In this document: positions 28,148 to 36,376 of the stretch, one piece after another | How positions within the stretch are numbered: the first letter of the stretch is position 1 | Layout: each line of letters starts with the position of its first letter | Origin: Sminthopsis crassicaudata | Lineage: Eukaryota | Direction of reading: 5' to 3' | DNA: 64,000 bases | Assembly (NCBI RefSeq): GCF_048593235.1 | Contig: NC_133622.1 | Span: 246,144,055 to 246,208,054 of the forward strand | Translations under genes and position numbers: made by a program | Notes under the pieces: generated by a model | The model's database searches: none | What the model saw: the letters and a program-made list of their open reading frames with translations, nothing else | What the model was told of the DNA's origin: nothing

Positions 28148-29275
28148 TATAACATAAATCTTAAACTACATATATATTGGTAATTTGAATATGGGATAGA
28201 GTAATTGAGTGGTTGGTAGCATTGTAAAGAATATTAGACCTGAAGTCAGAAAGACTCAATTTCATGATTTCAAATCTGACCTCAGACACTTAATTGGAAA
28301 TGTCATGGAAGGCAAGTCACTCTTGTGTGCCTCAATTCTAATCTGTAGAATAAGTTGGAGAAGTAAATGGTAAACCAATCTAGTATCTTTGCTCAGAAAA
28401 CCCCCAGTGGGGTCATGGAGAGTCCGAATTGAAAAAGTGATTTACCATCAACAGAGTATGCACTGTTGCTAGTATTATAGATATTGGCATTTTTTAAAAT
28501 AAGAGAGACACTGCATTTAGAATCAGAATAATCAGTGAAGATCTAACTTTATTATTAATAGTCTTTGTTACTTCATACAAAACATTGAATCAATATGAGC
28601 CCTTATTTACTATCCTAAGATTTAATATCCTCAGTAATATTAGCTTAAATTGTATAATACCTGAATGCTTTCAAATGCCTTCCTGAATATAACTTATGAA
28701 ACATGTAATAAAAGTATAAATCTTTCCCTCATCCTAATCTTTCATTTTCTCTCTATGAGATTTATAGATAGATACATATAGGGATAAATATGTATATATA
28801 TACACACATACATATATGTATACATACATATATACTAATGGATATATACAAATATATTTATTTATTCATATACATATGTATATATTTATATATGTATACA
28901 TACATATGTGATCATAAACATGTGTGTGTCTATTTATGTGTGCACATGCTGACATGCATGAAATCCATTTCCACCTTTAATGGTGACAGCCTTCTTTATT
29001 ATCTTTGTAGTAGTATCATTCACATTCCTAATGTTCATCATGTATAACTTCTTCTGGATATTCTACAGGATCAAGTATTTAAAACTCTGTTGCAGAACTT
29101 TGGGATGCAGCTCTGTCTTCAGCTCATTTTGGCCTAAAATATAGTTTAATTTTGCTTTTGTTCAGGCTTAAGCTTCTATCTAAATAAGTATTTTAATTCT
29201 TTCTCATTTTCAACACATTTTTACTGCTACTCATTGGGTTATTTGTTTTCAGTTAAATTACAGCACTGCAGCAGG

Positions 29276-30223
29276 ATGGGCAACTTGTCAATCATCACAG
29301 AATTCCTCCTCATGGAGTTTTCCAGCACACGTGACCTGCAGGTCTTACATGCTGTGCTGTTCCTGCTGATTTACCTGGCAGCCCTTCTGGGGAACCTTCT
29401 CACCTGTGCTGCAATTATCACTGACCCACACCTTCACTGTCCTATGTATTTTTTCCTGAGTAACTTATCCCTTGTAGATATTGGGACCATCTCTGTCACA
29501 CTTCCTAAATTCATTGTGAATTCCTTGAGTGGTGTTCAGTCCCTGTCCCTCCTGGGATGTGCTGCCCAGATCTTCTTCTTTCTCTTTTTTGGAACAACAG
29601 AGTTTGCTTTGCTTGTGGCCATGTCCTATGACCGCTTTGTGGCCATCTGCCAGCCCCTCCACTATGGCATCATCATGACTCCAGCACGTTGTCTCTGGGC
29701 AGCAGCTGGCTCATGGCTCAGTGGGCTTCTTTATTCAGCCGTACACACAGGAAACATGTTCCGGCTGCCCTTCTCAGGATCCAATGTGATCCACCAGTTT
29801 TTCTGTGACATCCCTCATGTCTTGAAAGTCTCGACCTCGGATGTGTTTAATACTGAGTTTATATTAATTGTAGTAAGCTTGTGCTGTTTGTTATGCTGCT
29901 TTGCCTTTTTAATCACAACCTATGCTCGCATTTTCTCCAGTGTGCTCAAGATTCCTTCTGTGGAAGGACGCTACAAGGCCATTTCCACATGCTCCCCTCA
30001 GTTGATAATCCTCATGTTATTTCTCATTTCTATAATGCTTGCTGTCCTCAGGGACACATCAGACACATCACCTATCCAAAACCTTTTAGTTGCAATGGCT
30101 TATACCACACTGCCTCCCCTGCTGAACCCTCTTATCTATAGCCTGAGGAACCAGAAGGTCACAGCTGCCATGGGCAAGATGATCAAGAGGATAGTTTTCC
30201 CCCCAATTTTTGGAAAGTATTAA
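29276..30223 (+). CDS. Olfactory receptor, family 14-like (OR gene 3), 315 aa, intact
   Basis: Same OR motifs as gene 2; ATG at 29276. Confidence 0.96.
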   Translation: MGNLSIITEFLLMEFSSTRDLQVLHAVLFLLIYLAALLGNLLTCAAIITDPHLHCPMYFFLSNLSLVDIGTISVTLPKFIVNSLSGVQSLSLLGCAAQIFFFLFFGTTEFALLVAMSYDRFVAICQPLHYGIIMTPARCLWAAAGSWLSGLLYSAVHTGNMFRLPFSGSNVIHQFFCDIPHVLKVSTSDVFNTEFILIVVSLCCLLCCFAFLITTYARIFSSVLKIPSVEGRYKAISTCSPQLIILMLFLISIMLAVLRDTSDTSPIQNLLVAMAYTTLPPLLNPLIYSLRNQKVTAAMGKMIKRIVFPPIFGKY

Positions 30224-30666
30224 GAAGTGGAAGAATGTGCATTGGTGCTGTAAAATGTGCAAGGTGATACATTAGGTCATGTAGAAATGACACCAAAAAT
30301 CATATCAATGAGGAAATAACTCTTTAGGTAAAATATTACATTGGGTAGAATGAATTGGTATTATTTTAGTGTAACTTTGAACCACTCTGTAACTGGTCAT
30401 TTTCTGTAGTGGAATATTTATGATTCTAGCCCATGTCTTTGGGCAACTGTGTCCTCAGAGGAATGGATGAAACACTCATTGATCCCATGAGGGAACAGTA
30501 GATTAGCTTAACTAAAAGCAGCCATCAGGATGATTGTGTTGTTTCTACTCTTGATATGAATCTTGTCTTATCACTTCCATTTCATGTTTTTGTTTCTCTT
30601 TATCTTTAGGATGATAATGATCTTTTTTTTCTTTGCATGTTAAAAATATATTCCTCATTCCAAGTA

Positions 30667-31134
30667 TGTAACGAGCTGTCGTCTCTAGAAGCTGCTGGAT
30701 CGCTCTCTGGGAAGAGATCTGCTGTGTCCTTTACTCAAATCTCTCCGACAGATTCTTCTTCCTGTAACGAACCGTTGTCTCCAGGCAGTTGCTGTTAACT
30801 CTTGTCCAAAGAAGTGACTTCCCTTCCTGCAGAGAGCCCCGTCAAGCCTGATGCAATTCAGAGTCTTCCTTCTTGAATCCTGGCTCTGAATCTCCTCCAG
30901 CTCTTATCCTTCTCCAGGCCGATCTGCTCTCTGCGCCCAGTGCTGTCTCTTTTTATCCTCCCAGAGAATGGGCGTGGGATAATGCAAGGGCTTCTGGGAA
31001 GAACCACCCCAGCCAATGAGCTTGCCCCCTCTATCAAGTCAACCTGAGTTCTCACCTTGTAATTGTCCAGAAAACCTGAATTCTCACCTTGTCACCATCC
31101 AGACAACCTCAGTTCTCACCTAGTAATCCCAACA
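30667..31134 (-). repeat. 3' LTR (468 bp)
   Basis: Abuts the PPT. CCAAT box at 31013-31017, TATA-like ATAAAAA at 30950-30956, AGTAAA at 30730-30735 on the minus strand. Confidence 0.96.
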
Positions 31135-31150
31135 TCTCCCCCTTTCTTTT
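31135..31150 (-). promoter_or_regulatory. Polypurine tract
   Basis: Minus strand AAAAGAAAGGGGGAGA immediately before the TGTTGGG LTR start. Confidence 0.92.
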
Positions 31151-31435
31151 GATTTAGAACATAGGACAGTCATGACCTTGAAACATAAATCCATCAATAT
31201 GGGAAGTATTACAGATAATTACATAAATTACATAAGCACATAGTAACATAGTAACATAACACATGCTAGAAGTATATAACATAATCATAATCATAAATTG
31301 AAAATTTATAAATGTCCATAAGTCCATTGTCCATTAGTCTCATCTTGTGTGAGGAAGTCCAATGATTCCTGCTGGTTTTTTAAAGTTCTTTAACAGTCTT
31401 CTTATTATCCATGCTCTTTCAGTGTCAGATGTTTC

Positions 31436-31625
31436 TTAGATCTTCTCCTTTATTTTGAGGTCTTTCTCTTTTTCTGTCTCTCTCTGATGGATAAGGCGAA
31501 TATGACTCGTTGGCACCCATCTGATTCCTTCTCCTGCTGAAGAAATACAAGCAAACCCTCTCTCCCAGGCAGTTAACCTATCTAATTTCCTTCTATTTAC
31601 CACTTTCTAAATCTCTTCTCATCAT
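31436..31625 (-). pseudogene. pol: Remnant of the betaretroviral integrase C-terminal domain
   Basis: Reads MMRRDLESGK*K, then after a frameshift LDRLTAWERGFACISSAGEGIRWVPTSHIRL. This matches the W-R/K-D..G.W.GPD..WGRG.AC..W.P pattern of betaretroviral IN C-termini. Confidence 0.75.
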
Positions 31626-31632
31626 CTGACAA

Positions 31633-33456
31633 TTACATTGGAGTTGTTTGCACTGGGCACAGCCCTGTTGGTTTAAAAGGCCTGTATTCTCCCCAAGTGT
31701 AATCCATTTTTGCAATCTGATTGCCTTTTGACTGACTTATCAGGTAATCCCTTTCTGCCATGTGATTGCTTCTCTGCTGATTGATTAAATCAGAGTCCTG
31801 GCCTTCTAAAGGTTCTTTGGGTGTAACATCAGCTGCCATCATGCCCCAAGTCTTTTTTGCCTGGGGCCCTGGACCTGGGCCCCTCATCCCATTTCCCTGA
31901 ATTATTCTACACTCTGATGCCCAATGGAGTCCTCTGTTGCATTTTGGACATGGGGTTTTAGGTCTTCTCTCACCCTGTCTTCTCACTGTATCTCCATACC
32001 TACACTGAGCTCTTAGATGTCCAATTTTTCCACATTGAAAACATCTCCGAGTTTCTCTAGAAGGCCCTTGCCAGGAGGGACCCTGTCTTTCCACATTCAT
32101 CATTGTCCGGGTGTAAAAAGCATTTGTTCCCACTGTAGCACAGCGTCTTATGATCTCCTCTAAAGGAGCATCTTTGTCTAATCCCCATATAATTCTTTTG
32201 CAAATCTCATTGGCATTTTCCTTAGCCAGATGTCTGGTCATTATTTCTGTAGCTGAATTTTCTCCAATAGTTCTTTTGACAGCAGTTTGCAAACGTCCCA
32301 CAAAATCTGCAAAAGGTTCATTGGGACCTTGCTGTATTTTAGTGAAAGCCTCTCCACGATCTTTCTGTCCAGGAAGGACACCCCAAGCTTTTATTGCAGC
32401 CTTAGCAATTTGTTCATATATTGTCATGGTATAATTAATCTGTTCCGAATTCTCTCCATATTGACCTTCACCAGCTAAGTGCTCAAAAGTGAATTGTGTG
32501 TTAACTCCTATTTCCAAATTGCATCTGACTTGAATTTTACATAATTCATGAAATTCCGCAAGCCATAATAAATTTTCTCCAGGCTCCAGACATGTCCTTG
32601 CTATGGATTTCCAATCATTCGGGGTTAGGACTTCATAAGACAAACCATCTAGTAACATTTTGACATAAGCTGATGTAGCCCCATAAAGGGTACAACCTTT
32701 TTTCAAATCCTTAATTGTATTCAAATCTAAAGGTGCATATCTTCTCCTTTTTTTACCTACAGAGTCAGTATTTTCAATCACAGGATATGCATGTATAAAA
32801 TCACTTATATCCTGTCCTTCTCTCTTAGCTTTAACCAATGCTTTTTCTAATCTTGTCATAGGCTTAGGCTTCTTCACAGGCAATTCTGTTTGTGTTTCTG
32901 CCTCTTCCCCTCTTTCTTCCTCCATCTCTGAAGGTGGGGTTGATGTGGGCCTGTCAATAATCTGTTCTCTAGGCAGGGTTGAAGCTTCTTCAAGAGAATC
33001 ATACCATAATTCCTCATTTAAATCCTCTTGCTCTAGGGAAAGATCTTGATCTTTCCTTTTTTCCTCACACTTCCTCCTCTGTTCATTTTTAGAACTTTTC
33101 CTTCTCCTACAACTTGCTTGATAGTTTAAGGCTAATTGAACTATGTTGTAGATATAAAATACTTCTGCAGAAATTGAACGAGGCCCATTTTTTGCTTGAA
33201 ATTCTTTCATTTCATATCCCACTAGCTTCCATTTATCTACATCTATTTTTTCTTCCTCTAAGAACCAAGGGGATGTGCGTCTTAATGCAGCCAAGAGTTT
33301 AGCAATCTGTACCCAGGTTACAAGTAAACTCTGCTCCTCAATTATGTTGATTATACTCTCTATAGTACCACTCCTGAATGGAGCTGAGGTTGCGTCTGGG
33401 GCTGAGGTTGAGTCGGCTGAGGTCCAGGGATTGAATATAGCTAACATCTGCCCCAT
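31633..33456 (-). CDS. gag: Intact betaretrovirus-like Gag polyprotein, 607 aa (MA, CA, NC with two CCHC knuckles, C-terminal extension)
   Basis: MGQ myristoylation-type start, major homology region IQQGPNEPFADFVGRL, zinc knuckles CFQCGKIGHLRAQC and CPKCNRGLHWASEC, GNGMRGP tail motif. Confidence 0.96.
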   Translation of the reverse strand: MGQMLAIFNPWTSADSTSAPDATSAPFRSGTIESIINIIEEQSLLVTWVQIAKLLAALRRTSPWFLEEEKIDVDKWKLVGYEMKEFQAKNGPRSISAEVFYIYNIVQLALNYQASCRRRKSSKNEQRRKCEEKRKDQDLSLEQEDLNEELWYDSLEEASTLPREQIIDRPTSTPPSEMEEERGEEAETQTELPVKKPKPMTRLEKALVKAKREGQDISDFIHAYPVIENTDSVGKKRRRYAPLDLNTIKDLKKGCTLYGATSAYVKMLLDGLSYEVLTPNDWKSIARTCLEPGENLLWLAEFHELCKIQVRCNLEIGVNTQFTFEHLAGEGQYGENSEQINYTMTIYEQIAKAAIKAWGVLPGQKDRGEAFTKIQQGPNEPFADFVGRLQTAVKRTIGENSATEIMTRHLAKENANEICKRIIWGLDKDAPLEEIIRRCATVGTNAFYTRTMMNVERQGPSWQGPSRETRRCFQCGKIGHLRAQCRYGDTVRRQGERRPKTPCPKCNRGLHWASECRIIQGNGMRGPGPGPQAKKTWGMMAADVTPKEPLEGQDSDLINQQRSNHMAERDYLISQSKGNQIAKMDYTWGEYRPFKPTGLCPVQTTPM

Positions 33457-33624
33457 TTCAGCTATAAGAGATTCCTGGTTTAGCCCTTAACAAGTTAAGT
33501 TCCTTATTTATCTATTAGCACGCTCACTTAATCTTTAACAAAGTTTCCTCGTTACTCACGGTTCTGGGTCAGAGAGACTGAGATCTAGATCGGAAGCTTT
33601 TCCACTGGAATCAGGACTGTGTCT

Positions 33625-33642
33625 GTCCCTGTTCGGGCGCCA
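33625..33642 (-). promoter_or_regulatory. Second (internal) primer-binding site, tRNA-Lys3
   Basis: Minus strand TGGCGCCCGAACAGGGAC, 18/18 to the tRNA-Lys3 PBS used by HIV-1 and MMTV. Confidence 0.93.
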
Positions 33643-33693
33643 AATTGCAAAGGTCTGGTCTAGCTCTTCTTGTCAGAATAAGCAAAAGTCCTT

Positions 33694-33711
33694 GCCCCAC
33701 GTTGGGCGCCA
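33694..33711 (-). promoter_or_regulatory. Primer-binding site, tRNA-Lys1,2
   Basis: Minus strand TGGCGCCCAACGTGGGGC, 2 nt after the 5' LTR terminal CA; 18/18 to the tRNA-Lys1,2 PBS (MPMV type). Confidence 0.95.
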
Positions 33712-33713
33712 AT

Positions 33714-34178
33714 TGTAACGAGCTGTCGTCTCTAGAAGCTGCTGGATCGCTCTCTGGGAAGAGATCTGCTGTGTCTAATCAAATCTCTCCGACAGATTCT
33801 TCTTCCTGTAACGAACCGTTGTCTCCAGGCAGTTGCTGTTAACTCTTGTCCAAAGAAGTGACTTCCCTTCCTGCAGAGAGCCCCGTCAAGCCTGATGCAA
33901 TTCAGAGTCTTCCTTCTTGAATCCTGGCTCTGAATCTCCTCCAGCTCTTATCCTTCTCCAGGCCGATCTGCTCTCTGCGCCCAGTGCTGTCTCTTTTTAT
34001 CCTCCCAGAGAATGGGCGTGGGATAATGCAAGGGCTTCTGGGAAGAACCACCCCAGCCAATGAGCTTGCCCCCTCTATCAAGTCAACCTGAGTTCTCACC
34101 TTGTAATTGTCCAGAAAACCTGAATTCTCACCTTGTCACCATCCAGACAACCTCAGTTCTCACCTAGTAATCCCAACA
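33714..34178 (-). repeat. 5' LTR (465 bp)
   Basis: Identical by eye to the 3' LTR except taa (33776-33778) in place of ctttac. Confidence 0.96.
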
Positions 34179-36376
34179 CAAGTAGAAATAAATAGGCACA
34201 CGTACATTTACAATTCATTCATTTAAACATGCATGTGCAATACCTACACATGTGCACACACATGTGTTTGCATGCTCTAGTTTTCTGGGTAGGAATTTAA
34301 ACTTTTTGTTTCTTATTTGTTCATTTGTAAAATGACATGGTTGGCTTGATGAACTCTATTTCCTCTAAGGTTTTTAGCCATGATTTTGCCAAAATTTTTC
34401 CTCATACCTTAAGCTGGAATTAATATTCAATACTTTTAACTTTATACATTGTCTTTTTTAGGTATGTATTACATTAATTTTCCATTACACCTACATGAAT
34501 AAATGCCTTATGTATCTTGGTGGATTCTCTCTTCACTTTCCCAATCACATACATCTAGGTCAAGTGGTACAAATAATGGTTGTCTTGAAGTGATCGTGTG
34601 TACTTCAATTACCACTGTATGAAGTTACTATTATACAAAATATGCTGATTGGCTTCTAATTCAGGGAAAATATCTTGTCTGAAGTTAAAAATGCAACTAC
34701 TTCAGGGATTTGTACTAATTAGGGCTTTGTTAAATTCCATATAAGAAAGATATTTTCATCGTTGTCTTTATATTCCTAGGACTTTTATAAAGCATAGAAT
34801 AAGCATTTTATAATTTATTGTATATTAATTTGAAATTTCTTGAGAACTGAAGCCTTTTTTATTTAACTTTATATACACCTATCACTACTACTTAACCTAA
34901 AATCTCTTTCATGGGAGACTATTGATGAAAATTAATTATTTNNNNNNNNNNNNNNNNNNNNNNNNNNNNNNNNNNNNNNNNNNNNNNNNNNNNNNNNNNN
35001 NNNNNNNNNNNNNNNNNNNNNNNNNNNNNNNNNNNNNNNNNNNNNNNNNNNNNNNNNNNNNNNNNNNNNNNNNATGGATGGACAGAGAAGAGGCCTTTTT
35101 AAAATGCTCATGAGTTAAGTGGCAATGTAATGTAGGGACTCCCCTTAGCTCTCCCAAATTCCCTTCCAAACAACTTTAAAGTAAAGCATAAAATTTGAGC
35201 CTAAAAGGCATAAATGACAAAAAAATCAGGATAAAAGAATTTTCCATCCTGAGGTTGGAGAGGAGATTTGCAGTAAAGATTTCATAGGAGTGATGGTTAG
35301 GCTTGGAATGCAGTGTAGACTGCAATTTGGAAACCAACAGTGGGCCATGGGATTTGCTGTTTTTTTCCCTAGGTTTGGGAATAAGAACTCTAGCAAAATT
35401 TTTTGGGAAAACTGAAAAGCTTTTTTTTTTTTTTTTTTTTTTTTTTGCCAAAAGCTCATTATAGAACATATCATCTCCCAAGATAAAGTAAAAATGGGTA
35501 CCTGATTTTGTCACAAAAGTTTATTGGATCAACAAATTACAGGAGCATGGAATATTTTACTTGTCAAATCTTTAGAGAAGTGAAGAATTTATGACTAAGA
35601 TATAAATAACTTTATGAAATTCAAAATGGACAAATTATATTATATTAAATTAAATTTTTTTTGCACAAACAAAATAAATGCAACTAAGATTATGAGAAAA
35701 ACAGAAAATTGGGAGATAATTTTTACTACTGGTGTTTCTGTGAAAGGCCTCATGTATAATGCATGTAATGAGGTGAATCAAATTGATAAGAATATAAATC
35801 CTTCCCCCATTAATAAATAGTGAAAGGTATGAACAATTTTCACATGAAGAAGTTAAAGCTATTTATAGTCATATGAAAATACTCTATATCACTATTGCTT
35901 AAAAACATGCAAATTAAAACAACACTGAGGTATCATTTAACACCTCGTAGATTGACTCATGATAGAAAAGGAAAATGATAACAGGTGGATGTGCAGAGAA
36001 AAGGAGGATACTTTAGGCAGTATTAGCTGAGATGTGAACTGAAATGACAAATTTGAAGAACATTTTTGAAGTATGACTAAAGGGCTATAAAACTATGAGT
36101 ACCCTTTGTTCTAGCATTATAATTATTTGGTCTATATCCCAAATAGATTTAAAGAAAGGAGCAAGAGGAAGGACTTATTTATATAAAAATATTTATGTTG
36201 GCTCTGTCTATGTTGATAAAGAATTTGAAAGGCCCATCAATAGTGGAACGATTTAAGCAGTATATAATTGTAAAAAAAAAATAAAATAATGATAATGTTA
36301 GAAAAACCTGGAACTACTTATATACAAAGTTAACTGAACAGAATCATGAGAACATTGGACACAGTAAAATGAATAA

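Follow-up and report, generated by a model that had tools for sequence, protein, structure and literature searches.

A Provirus with Two Primer-Binding Sites

The window analysed here, a 64,000-nucleotide stretch of the Sminthopsis crassicaudata genome, contains a tandem cluster of olfactory receptor genes (positions 9000-61000, in units of ~9-13 kb). Approximately 440 bp beyond the stop codon of one of these genes (29150-30223, plus strand), and on the opposite strand, lies a 3.5-kb provirus (30667-34178, minus strand) that is flanked on both sides by the target-site duplication TACTTG (upstream copy 34179-34184, downstream copy 30661-30666).

All features of the provirus are read on the minus strand. 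Its 5' LTR (33714-34178) is a short-form LTR of 465 nt that begins with TGT, ends with ACA and is followed by AT. Next comes primer-binding site (PBS) 1 (33694-33711), a perfect match to tRNA-Lys(CTT), and the LTR end is set here in ~90% of the proviruses of the family. A 51-nt spacer (33643-33693) ends in CA-ATT, its CA being the end of a longer LTR form. It is followed by PBS 2 (33625-33642), which is perfect for tRNA-Lys(TTT), occupies the ancestral PBS position and sets the LTR end in ~10% of proviruses. The leader (33457-33624) carries a splice-donor-like motif at 33559 that is kept in older relatives and, judging by the motif, may act in splicing. The gag reading frame (31633-33456) encodes matrix, capsid and two zinc knuckles; a domain search identified p10 matrix, p24 capsid and both knuckles, the latter with scores below the Pfam cut-off. 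No long pol or env frame was found in this 3.5-kb copy. A polypurine tract (31135-31150) stands ahead of the 3' LTR (30667-31134), a short form of 468 nt with the same ACA end as the 5' LTR. The two LTRs are one substitution and one 3-nt gap apart.

The 18 nt of site 1 correspond to the last 15 nt of a host tRNA-Lys(CTT) gene with CCA added. When site 2 was extended by the T-arm letters that follow it in read-through copies (see below), the matching host loci were tRNA-Lys(TTT) genes in 7 of 10 fetched cases. The chance expectation for an exact 18-mer in 64 kb is ~2e-6. An Rfam scan of four loci gave no match. The first-pass annotation, made from the letters of the window, had described two perfect tRNA-Lys PBSs, Lys1,2 at 33711-33694 and Lys3 at 33642-33625 on the minus strand, and this description is exact. 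According to the textbooks, a retrovirus has a single primer site.

A Young and Highly Amplified Family

The junction of the spacer end with site 2 has 1,579 exact matches genome-wide as compared to none for a reversed control, and sequencing contigs from four runs of four studies cover both sites, with no single listed piece spanning the whole stretch. The junction count, the empty control and the contigs of four studies rule out that the second PBS is an assembly join, an objection that the first-pass annotation had raised. The dual PBS is a family-wide trait, and single-site derivatives are a minority. Both sites were perfect in 29 of the 30 closest copies, a set that is biased toward the query.

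Our main sample consisted of the first 100 listed junctions, which were chosen for a perfect site 2 and lie on one chromosome arm. Both ends and a 6-bp duplication could be identified for 82 of them and 18 were unscorable; one duplicate was dropped, leaving 81. The family is young: 34 of 82 LTR pairs were without mismatch, and there were 268 mismatches in 35,126 columns overall (0.76%). Sixty-two of the 82 copies measured 3.0-3.7 kb, 12 measured ~6.2-6.6 kb and 8 had other sizes, with 40 of the 100 regions being only 7.5 kb long. Judged by size, the 3.0-3.7-kb copies are gag-only, while the 6.3-kb class has gag, protease, reverse transcriptase (RT), RNase H and integrase domains (one copy scanned). 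No env frame of at least 90 aa was found in one listed 6.3-kb copy, a search that covered intact rather than degraded env. In one 6.3-kb member the Gag and protease domains share a single reading frame; betaretroviruses usually frameshift between the two.

Class II (betaretrovirus-like) endogenous retroviruses have a lysine PBS and a 6-bp target duplication. The betaretroviral Gag, the lysine PBS and the 6-bp duplication, as read from the sequence, make the present family a probable member of this class. The family also resembles MEBrv3 (marsupial endogenous betaretrovirus 3), an env-less element that is described as highly amplified in dasyurids, with an LTR of 469 nt (PMC11334065), close to the 465 and 468 nt found here. 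From the same source, it seems that no other lineage of mobile retroelements has been as prominent in recent dasyurid history as this family. By eye, the likeness extends to the LTR end, the leader motifs and the start of Gag. The published representative differs, however, in its size of 7.3 kb, its single, Lys1,2-type site (by eye) and a leader about half as long, as compared to the 6.3-kb and 3.4-kb classes with two sites described here. The main text and supplement of that paper make no mention of PBS or tRNA (PMC11334065). We therefore call the family MEBrv3-like by eye, rather than a proven member.

Some copies depart from the common structure. Five of 30 fetched loci (L189, L190, L193, L195, and L213) are Lys3-only, site 2 following the young LTR without a gap, and the stretch CAATT(T)GGCGCCC that is common to both sites marks the deletion that yields such copies. 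In L127 and L141, part of site 2 is deleted. Seven family junctions (L202-L208) lie in tandem with a spacing of ~3 kb. On a 46-row tree a long internal branch (0.16) in leader-gag joins 15 of 46 young copies, which suggests that they have either a deletion in common or an alternative form of gag.

Short and Long LTRs

The right end of a retroviral LTR is fixed by the position of the primer. Among the 81 proviruses with target duplications, 73 had short LTRs that end before site 1. Lengths of 373-482 nt were recorded among short forms. The remaining eight had long LTRs, 68-69 nt longer, that end at the spacer CA and contain site 1 within both LTRs (95% interval for the long share, 4-19%). The first-pass annotation had predicted copies of this kind as products of priming at the second site, and they exist as proviruses and as solo LTRs.

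Further long forms were obtained from 30 spacer ends without the following A. Eleven were long solo LTRs with duplications, of which ten were perfect (one in a TA repeat) and one matched at 5/6 positions, and four were long 3' LTRs behind a polypurine tract; the remainder comprised 13 5' junctions and two older-subfamily spacers. A genome-wide count gave 242 long ends with C or G as the next base, as compared to 3,627 short ends, for which the pattern was looser. The long copies (three rows) were scattered without grouping on the 46-row tree. Long forms occur in both the 3.4-kb and the 6.3-kb classes, and the older subfamily also has both forms (L316 long, L315 short).

These data, all of them from genomic copies, indicate that both sites of the family are functional as primer sites. 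Short LTRs result when the upstream Lys(CTT) site is used, whereas use of the downstream Lys(TTT) site gives LTRs 68-69 nt longer with the first site inside. We infer that the short and long forms yield the same RNA, so that LTR length would be reset in every round. The copy in the window was primed at its Lys1,2 site, as had been claimed from its letters: the 3' LTR has the same ACA end and is followed directly by TACTTG. Switching between tRNA primers, raised at that stage as a possibility, is borne out by the two LTR forms and by the tRNA footprints of both primers.

Footprints of Both Primer tRNAs

When the plus strand reads past the PBS into the primer, part of the tRNA body is left in the provirus. 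Read-through of this kind was found at site 1 in 35 places, and the 30 that were fetched contained 28 Lys(CTT) and two Lys(TTT) bodies. At site 2 it was found in 17 places, all 17 with Lys(TTT) T-arm letters. The hypothesis that site 2 is dead, an assembly artefact or a one-off neutral chimera, had no finding in its favour and can be dismissed with near certainty, being refuted by these footprints, by the 1,579 junctions and by the long LTRs with target duplications.

Six of the 17 site-2 read-throughs had two LTRs and a duplication, and in all six the LTRs were short; the other 11 were untypable. In these copies, then, the ends were set at site 1 and yet the tRNA at site 2 was copied. Both tRNA bodies occur in one copy at L181/L293, and L167 is the mirror case, with a long 3' LTR and a copy of tRNA-Lys(CTT) at 5' site 1. 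On these footprints, it is likely that both primers acted in one copying event. The footprints fit one RNA or two co-packaged RNAs alike. Read-through copies are, moreover, aberrant events that may overstate dual initiation, and some of them could instead stem from a template switch to a tRNA that was bound without priming.

Primer cross-overs were seen at L159, L221, and L245, where tRNA-Lys(CTT) was copied at site 2 or a Lys(CTT) site is followed by a Lys(TTT) body. L160, L218, L229, L231, and L239 contain near-complete or complete tRNA-Lys(CTT) copies inside proviruses, some of them between head-to-head LTRs.

A Mismatched Allele of Site 1

Many copies (for example L076, L171, and L228) carry an allele of site 1 with one wobble and one extra base relative to the tRNA. 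The predicted duplex is weaker than that of the perfect site (-35.3 versus -41.8 kcal/mol), and pairing with ordinary tRNA-Lys(CTT) is possible; at L228 a whole tRNA-Lys(CTT) copy is joined to the mismatched allele. The allele contains a palindrome that we take to be E-box-like. Related variants are present in the oldest relatives, and L148 has exactly 18 nt of the mismatched allele at site 2.

The mismatched copies do not form a single clade, since the 46-row tree required 13 changes as compared to 13.5 for shuffled labels. A variant primer tRNA was also considered. Two patterns for such a gene gave 4 and 64 matches; every one of the 4 proved to be a family copy, as did the 20 that were fetched from the 64. 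T-loop-type flanking letters were present in none of the 64 pattern matches, the mismatched allele was present in none of 71 T-loop matches, and 12 matches in odd contexts were again family copies. This candidate was rejected, there being no such gene among the assembled sequence.

The allele was found in 29 of 72 short copies (~40%) and in 105 of 242 long ends. From work on HIV, a 50:50 inheritance of the PBS from tRNA and RNA is to be expected (PMC4549124). A reversion of 50% per round predicts the mismatched allele in ~22% of short copies, significantly fewer than the 29 of 72 observed (p = 0.0003). Either the primer corrects the site less effectively than expected, or copies with the allele have an advantage as templates.

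The persistence of this allele sets a limit to the frequency of full dual initiation, which as a regular event should have removed the allele; it is nevertheless present in 29 of 72 short copies. It could be argued that each site primes but that a single molecule is never primed at both, the mixed footprints being due to a pair of co-packaged RNAs with priming at different sites or to a plus-strand jump onto a bound tRNA. Template jumps are indeed common in the family, with read-throughs landing in gag, pol and inverted LTRs, and the survival of the mismatched allele in short copies speaks against frequent dual initiation on the same molecule. On the other hand, the typed site-2 read-throughs were short in six of six cases and site 1 was the perfect allele in ten of ten (p ~0.006 at a 40% allele share), as would be expected if the plus strand ran through copies of both primers. 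We consider it unlikely, though far from negligible, that the two primers never share a molecule.

The reading we prefer, to which we assign a probability of roughly 0.8, is that this is a young endogenous betaretrovirus-like family with two working PBSs and that a single template, or a single particle, is probably often primed by both tRNAs. In such cases the LTR ends would be set by the site-1 product, and the plus strand would cross the short site-2 product and copy tRNA-Lys(TTT), which would also keep site 2 repaired.

Origin of the Tandem Sites

Older relatives were found via a leader motif (193 loci, of which 30 were fetched). Twenty-one of the 30 have a single site, Lys1,2-type or decayed, at the position of site 2; eight are dual and one is Lys3-only. 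These single-site relatives overturn an idea drawn from the published MEBrv3 alone, that site 2 is the insertion.

In the older dual spacers, the 5' half can be aligned with the R-U5 region of the single-site LTR, beginning within the AATAAA of that LTR. For the spacer of L217 the match fell at the same position in 17 of 17 comparisons, with none of 300 shuffles as good; for that of L316 it was supported in 12 of 17. The shortened spacer of the window matched weakly (in 10 of 17 comparisons, at most 9 of 300 shuffles equalled it), and that of L305 gave no match to the old LTR. The 3' half of the spacer resembles, by eye only, the ends of newer LTRs. Decayed tRNA copies were rejected as the source of the spacer, an old LTR being preferred, since p ranged from 0.01 to 0.31 over eight spacers and the shared stretch was only 7-9 nt.

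On an unrooted 39-row tree, from which eight intended rows are missing, 14 dual rows and the Lys3-only row formed one starred group and 19 single-site rows formed another, with five long-branch rows outside both. LTR pairs diverge by 5.3-8.0% in six single-site copies as compared to 3.0-5.3% in four older dual copies. Two other older dual copies gave 9.5% and 11% from short or poor alignments, and 8 of 20 had no usable LTR pair.

Because the 5' half of the spacer is the R-U5 of an older LTR, it is likely that a new LTR with site 1 was grafted upstream and that the old poly(A) signal was destroyed. The recipient would have been a single-site ancestor of Lys1,2 type, and the poly(A) signal of its LTR the place where the new LTR and site 1 came in. 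The former R-U5 would have stayed as the spacer, and the former site would have become Lys3, before or after the graft.

The first-pass annotation had also envisaged a chimera, in which a body that was Lys3-primed from the start acquired a new LTR and a Lys1,2 site. The graft itself, and the derivation of the spacer's 5' half from another LTR, agree with our data. The Lys3-primed body is not supported: the 21 single-site relatives with an old LTR have Lys1,2-type or decayed sites without exception, exact patterns for a Lys3 form with that LTR had no matches, and the published MEBrv3 representative has, by eye, one Lys1,2-type site (PMC11334065). Three pattern searches for a Lys3-primed donor family gave no matches in two cases and a single singleton in the third. 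What could be cited in favour of such a body, apart from the old-LTR spacer, is L329, which is Lys3-only, has an LTR of the newer type and branches close to the base of the dual group; it is, however, a singleton, and we regard this version of the origin as rather unlikely. Nor did the join lie in CAATT(T)GGCGCCC, as had been suggested; it is found within the former poly(A) signal, immediately behind site 1. Grafting onto a Lys1,2-type ancestor is thus our preferred account, and under it the older copies preserve an LTR swap and a change of primer identity without a non-priming stage.

Comparison with Known Systems

Engineered HIV-based vectors with two PBSs were reportedly described by Voronin and Pathak in 2004, in a paper whose title reports frequent dual initiation. 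Like these laboratory constructs, the present family combines in one leader two complete sites that match different tRNAs and are each able to prime. Unlike them, it is natural, was amplified in the germline and has kept the arrangement while its LTR was replaced several times.

HIV-1 mutants with multiple PBSs have been described under forced primer change (PMC1084362). These likewise had tandem sites for different tRNAs that arose in reverse transcription, but they are presented as reversion anomalies in a cell line that were not isolated in PBMC, and not as a stable family (PMC1084362). The two-part PBS of Gypsy/Ty3 also places two tRNA-binding sites on one genomic RNA; there, however, a single tRNA is involved, and the second site is at the 3' end, is 11 nt long, is reported as dispensable for cDNA synthesis and in gypsy is not used for priming (PMC1635307). 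Here there are two tRNAs and two 18-nt sites that both prime, which sets the family apart from a bipartite PBS. In the HIV/SIV PBS-Lys3/Lys5 polymorphism, a site is inherited from tRNA or RNA and a variant site recurs, as with our mismatched allele. That case is described as one site with a variant tRNA (PMC4549124), whereas here no variant tRNA gene was found among the assembled sequence and the allele does not halve per round.

In the searchable literature, outside which lie Repbase, Dfam, subscription papers and bioRxiv supplements, we found no precedent for a natural element with two priming PBSs; to our knowledge, the other cases of two sites are limited to engineered vectors and unstable mutants. 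In the present family, the primer used can be read from each LTR end in thousands of young copies, so that primer choice, dual initiation and PBS inheritance become countable from genomes.

Why the Second Site Is Kept

The dual arrangement survived several LTR replacements, though a 69-nt deletion removes it. One possibility for its retention is that site 2 is kept mainly as an ancestral packaging signal or leader fold, and that priming is a tolerated by-product without benefit of its own. In MMTV the PBS sequence itself is reported to be needed for packaging (PMC8096270). Site 2 sits at the ancestral position and sets only ~10% of LTR ends, and copies in which it is partly deleted exist (L127 and L141). 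The change from a Lys1,2-type site to a perfect Lys3 site is left unexplained, however. We regard packaging as a serious contender that falls somewhat short of even odds. It is compatible with the dual-priming mechanism preferred above, as it concerns why, not whether, site 2 primes.

A more speculative possibility is that dual priming is itself selected and that both primers routinely fire on one template. The mismatched site-1 allele would then be kept by escaping tRNA-templated correction, perhaps dodging a PBS-binding repressor or 3' tRNA fragments. If this were true, the family would be a natural retroelement running two primers, with two LTR lengths from one RNA, but we hold it only tentatively and think it unlikely as a whole. 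Evasion of PBS-targeted silencing by the dual PBS, as the first-pass annotation had proposed, is doubtful. Repressors that bind PBS-Lys are known in mouse and human (PMC10602909), and since both sites are PBS-Lys, a second lysine site offers no obvious escape.

A family with two LTR lengths, one of which has a PBS inside, would confuse repeat annotation and the dating of LTRs. The embedded tRNA-Lys(CTT) copies account for about half of the 71 tRNA-like pattern matches and could be mis-annotated as tRNA genes.
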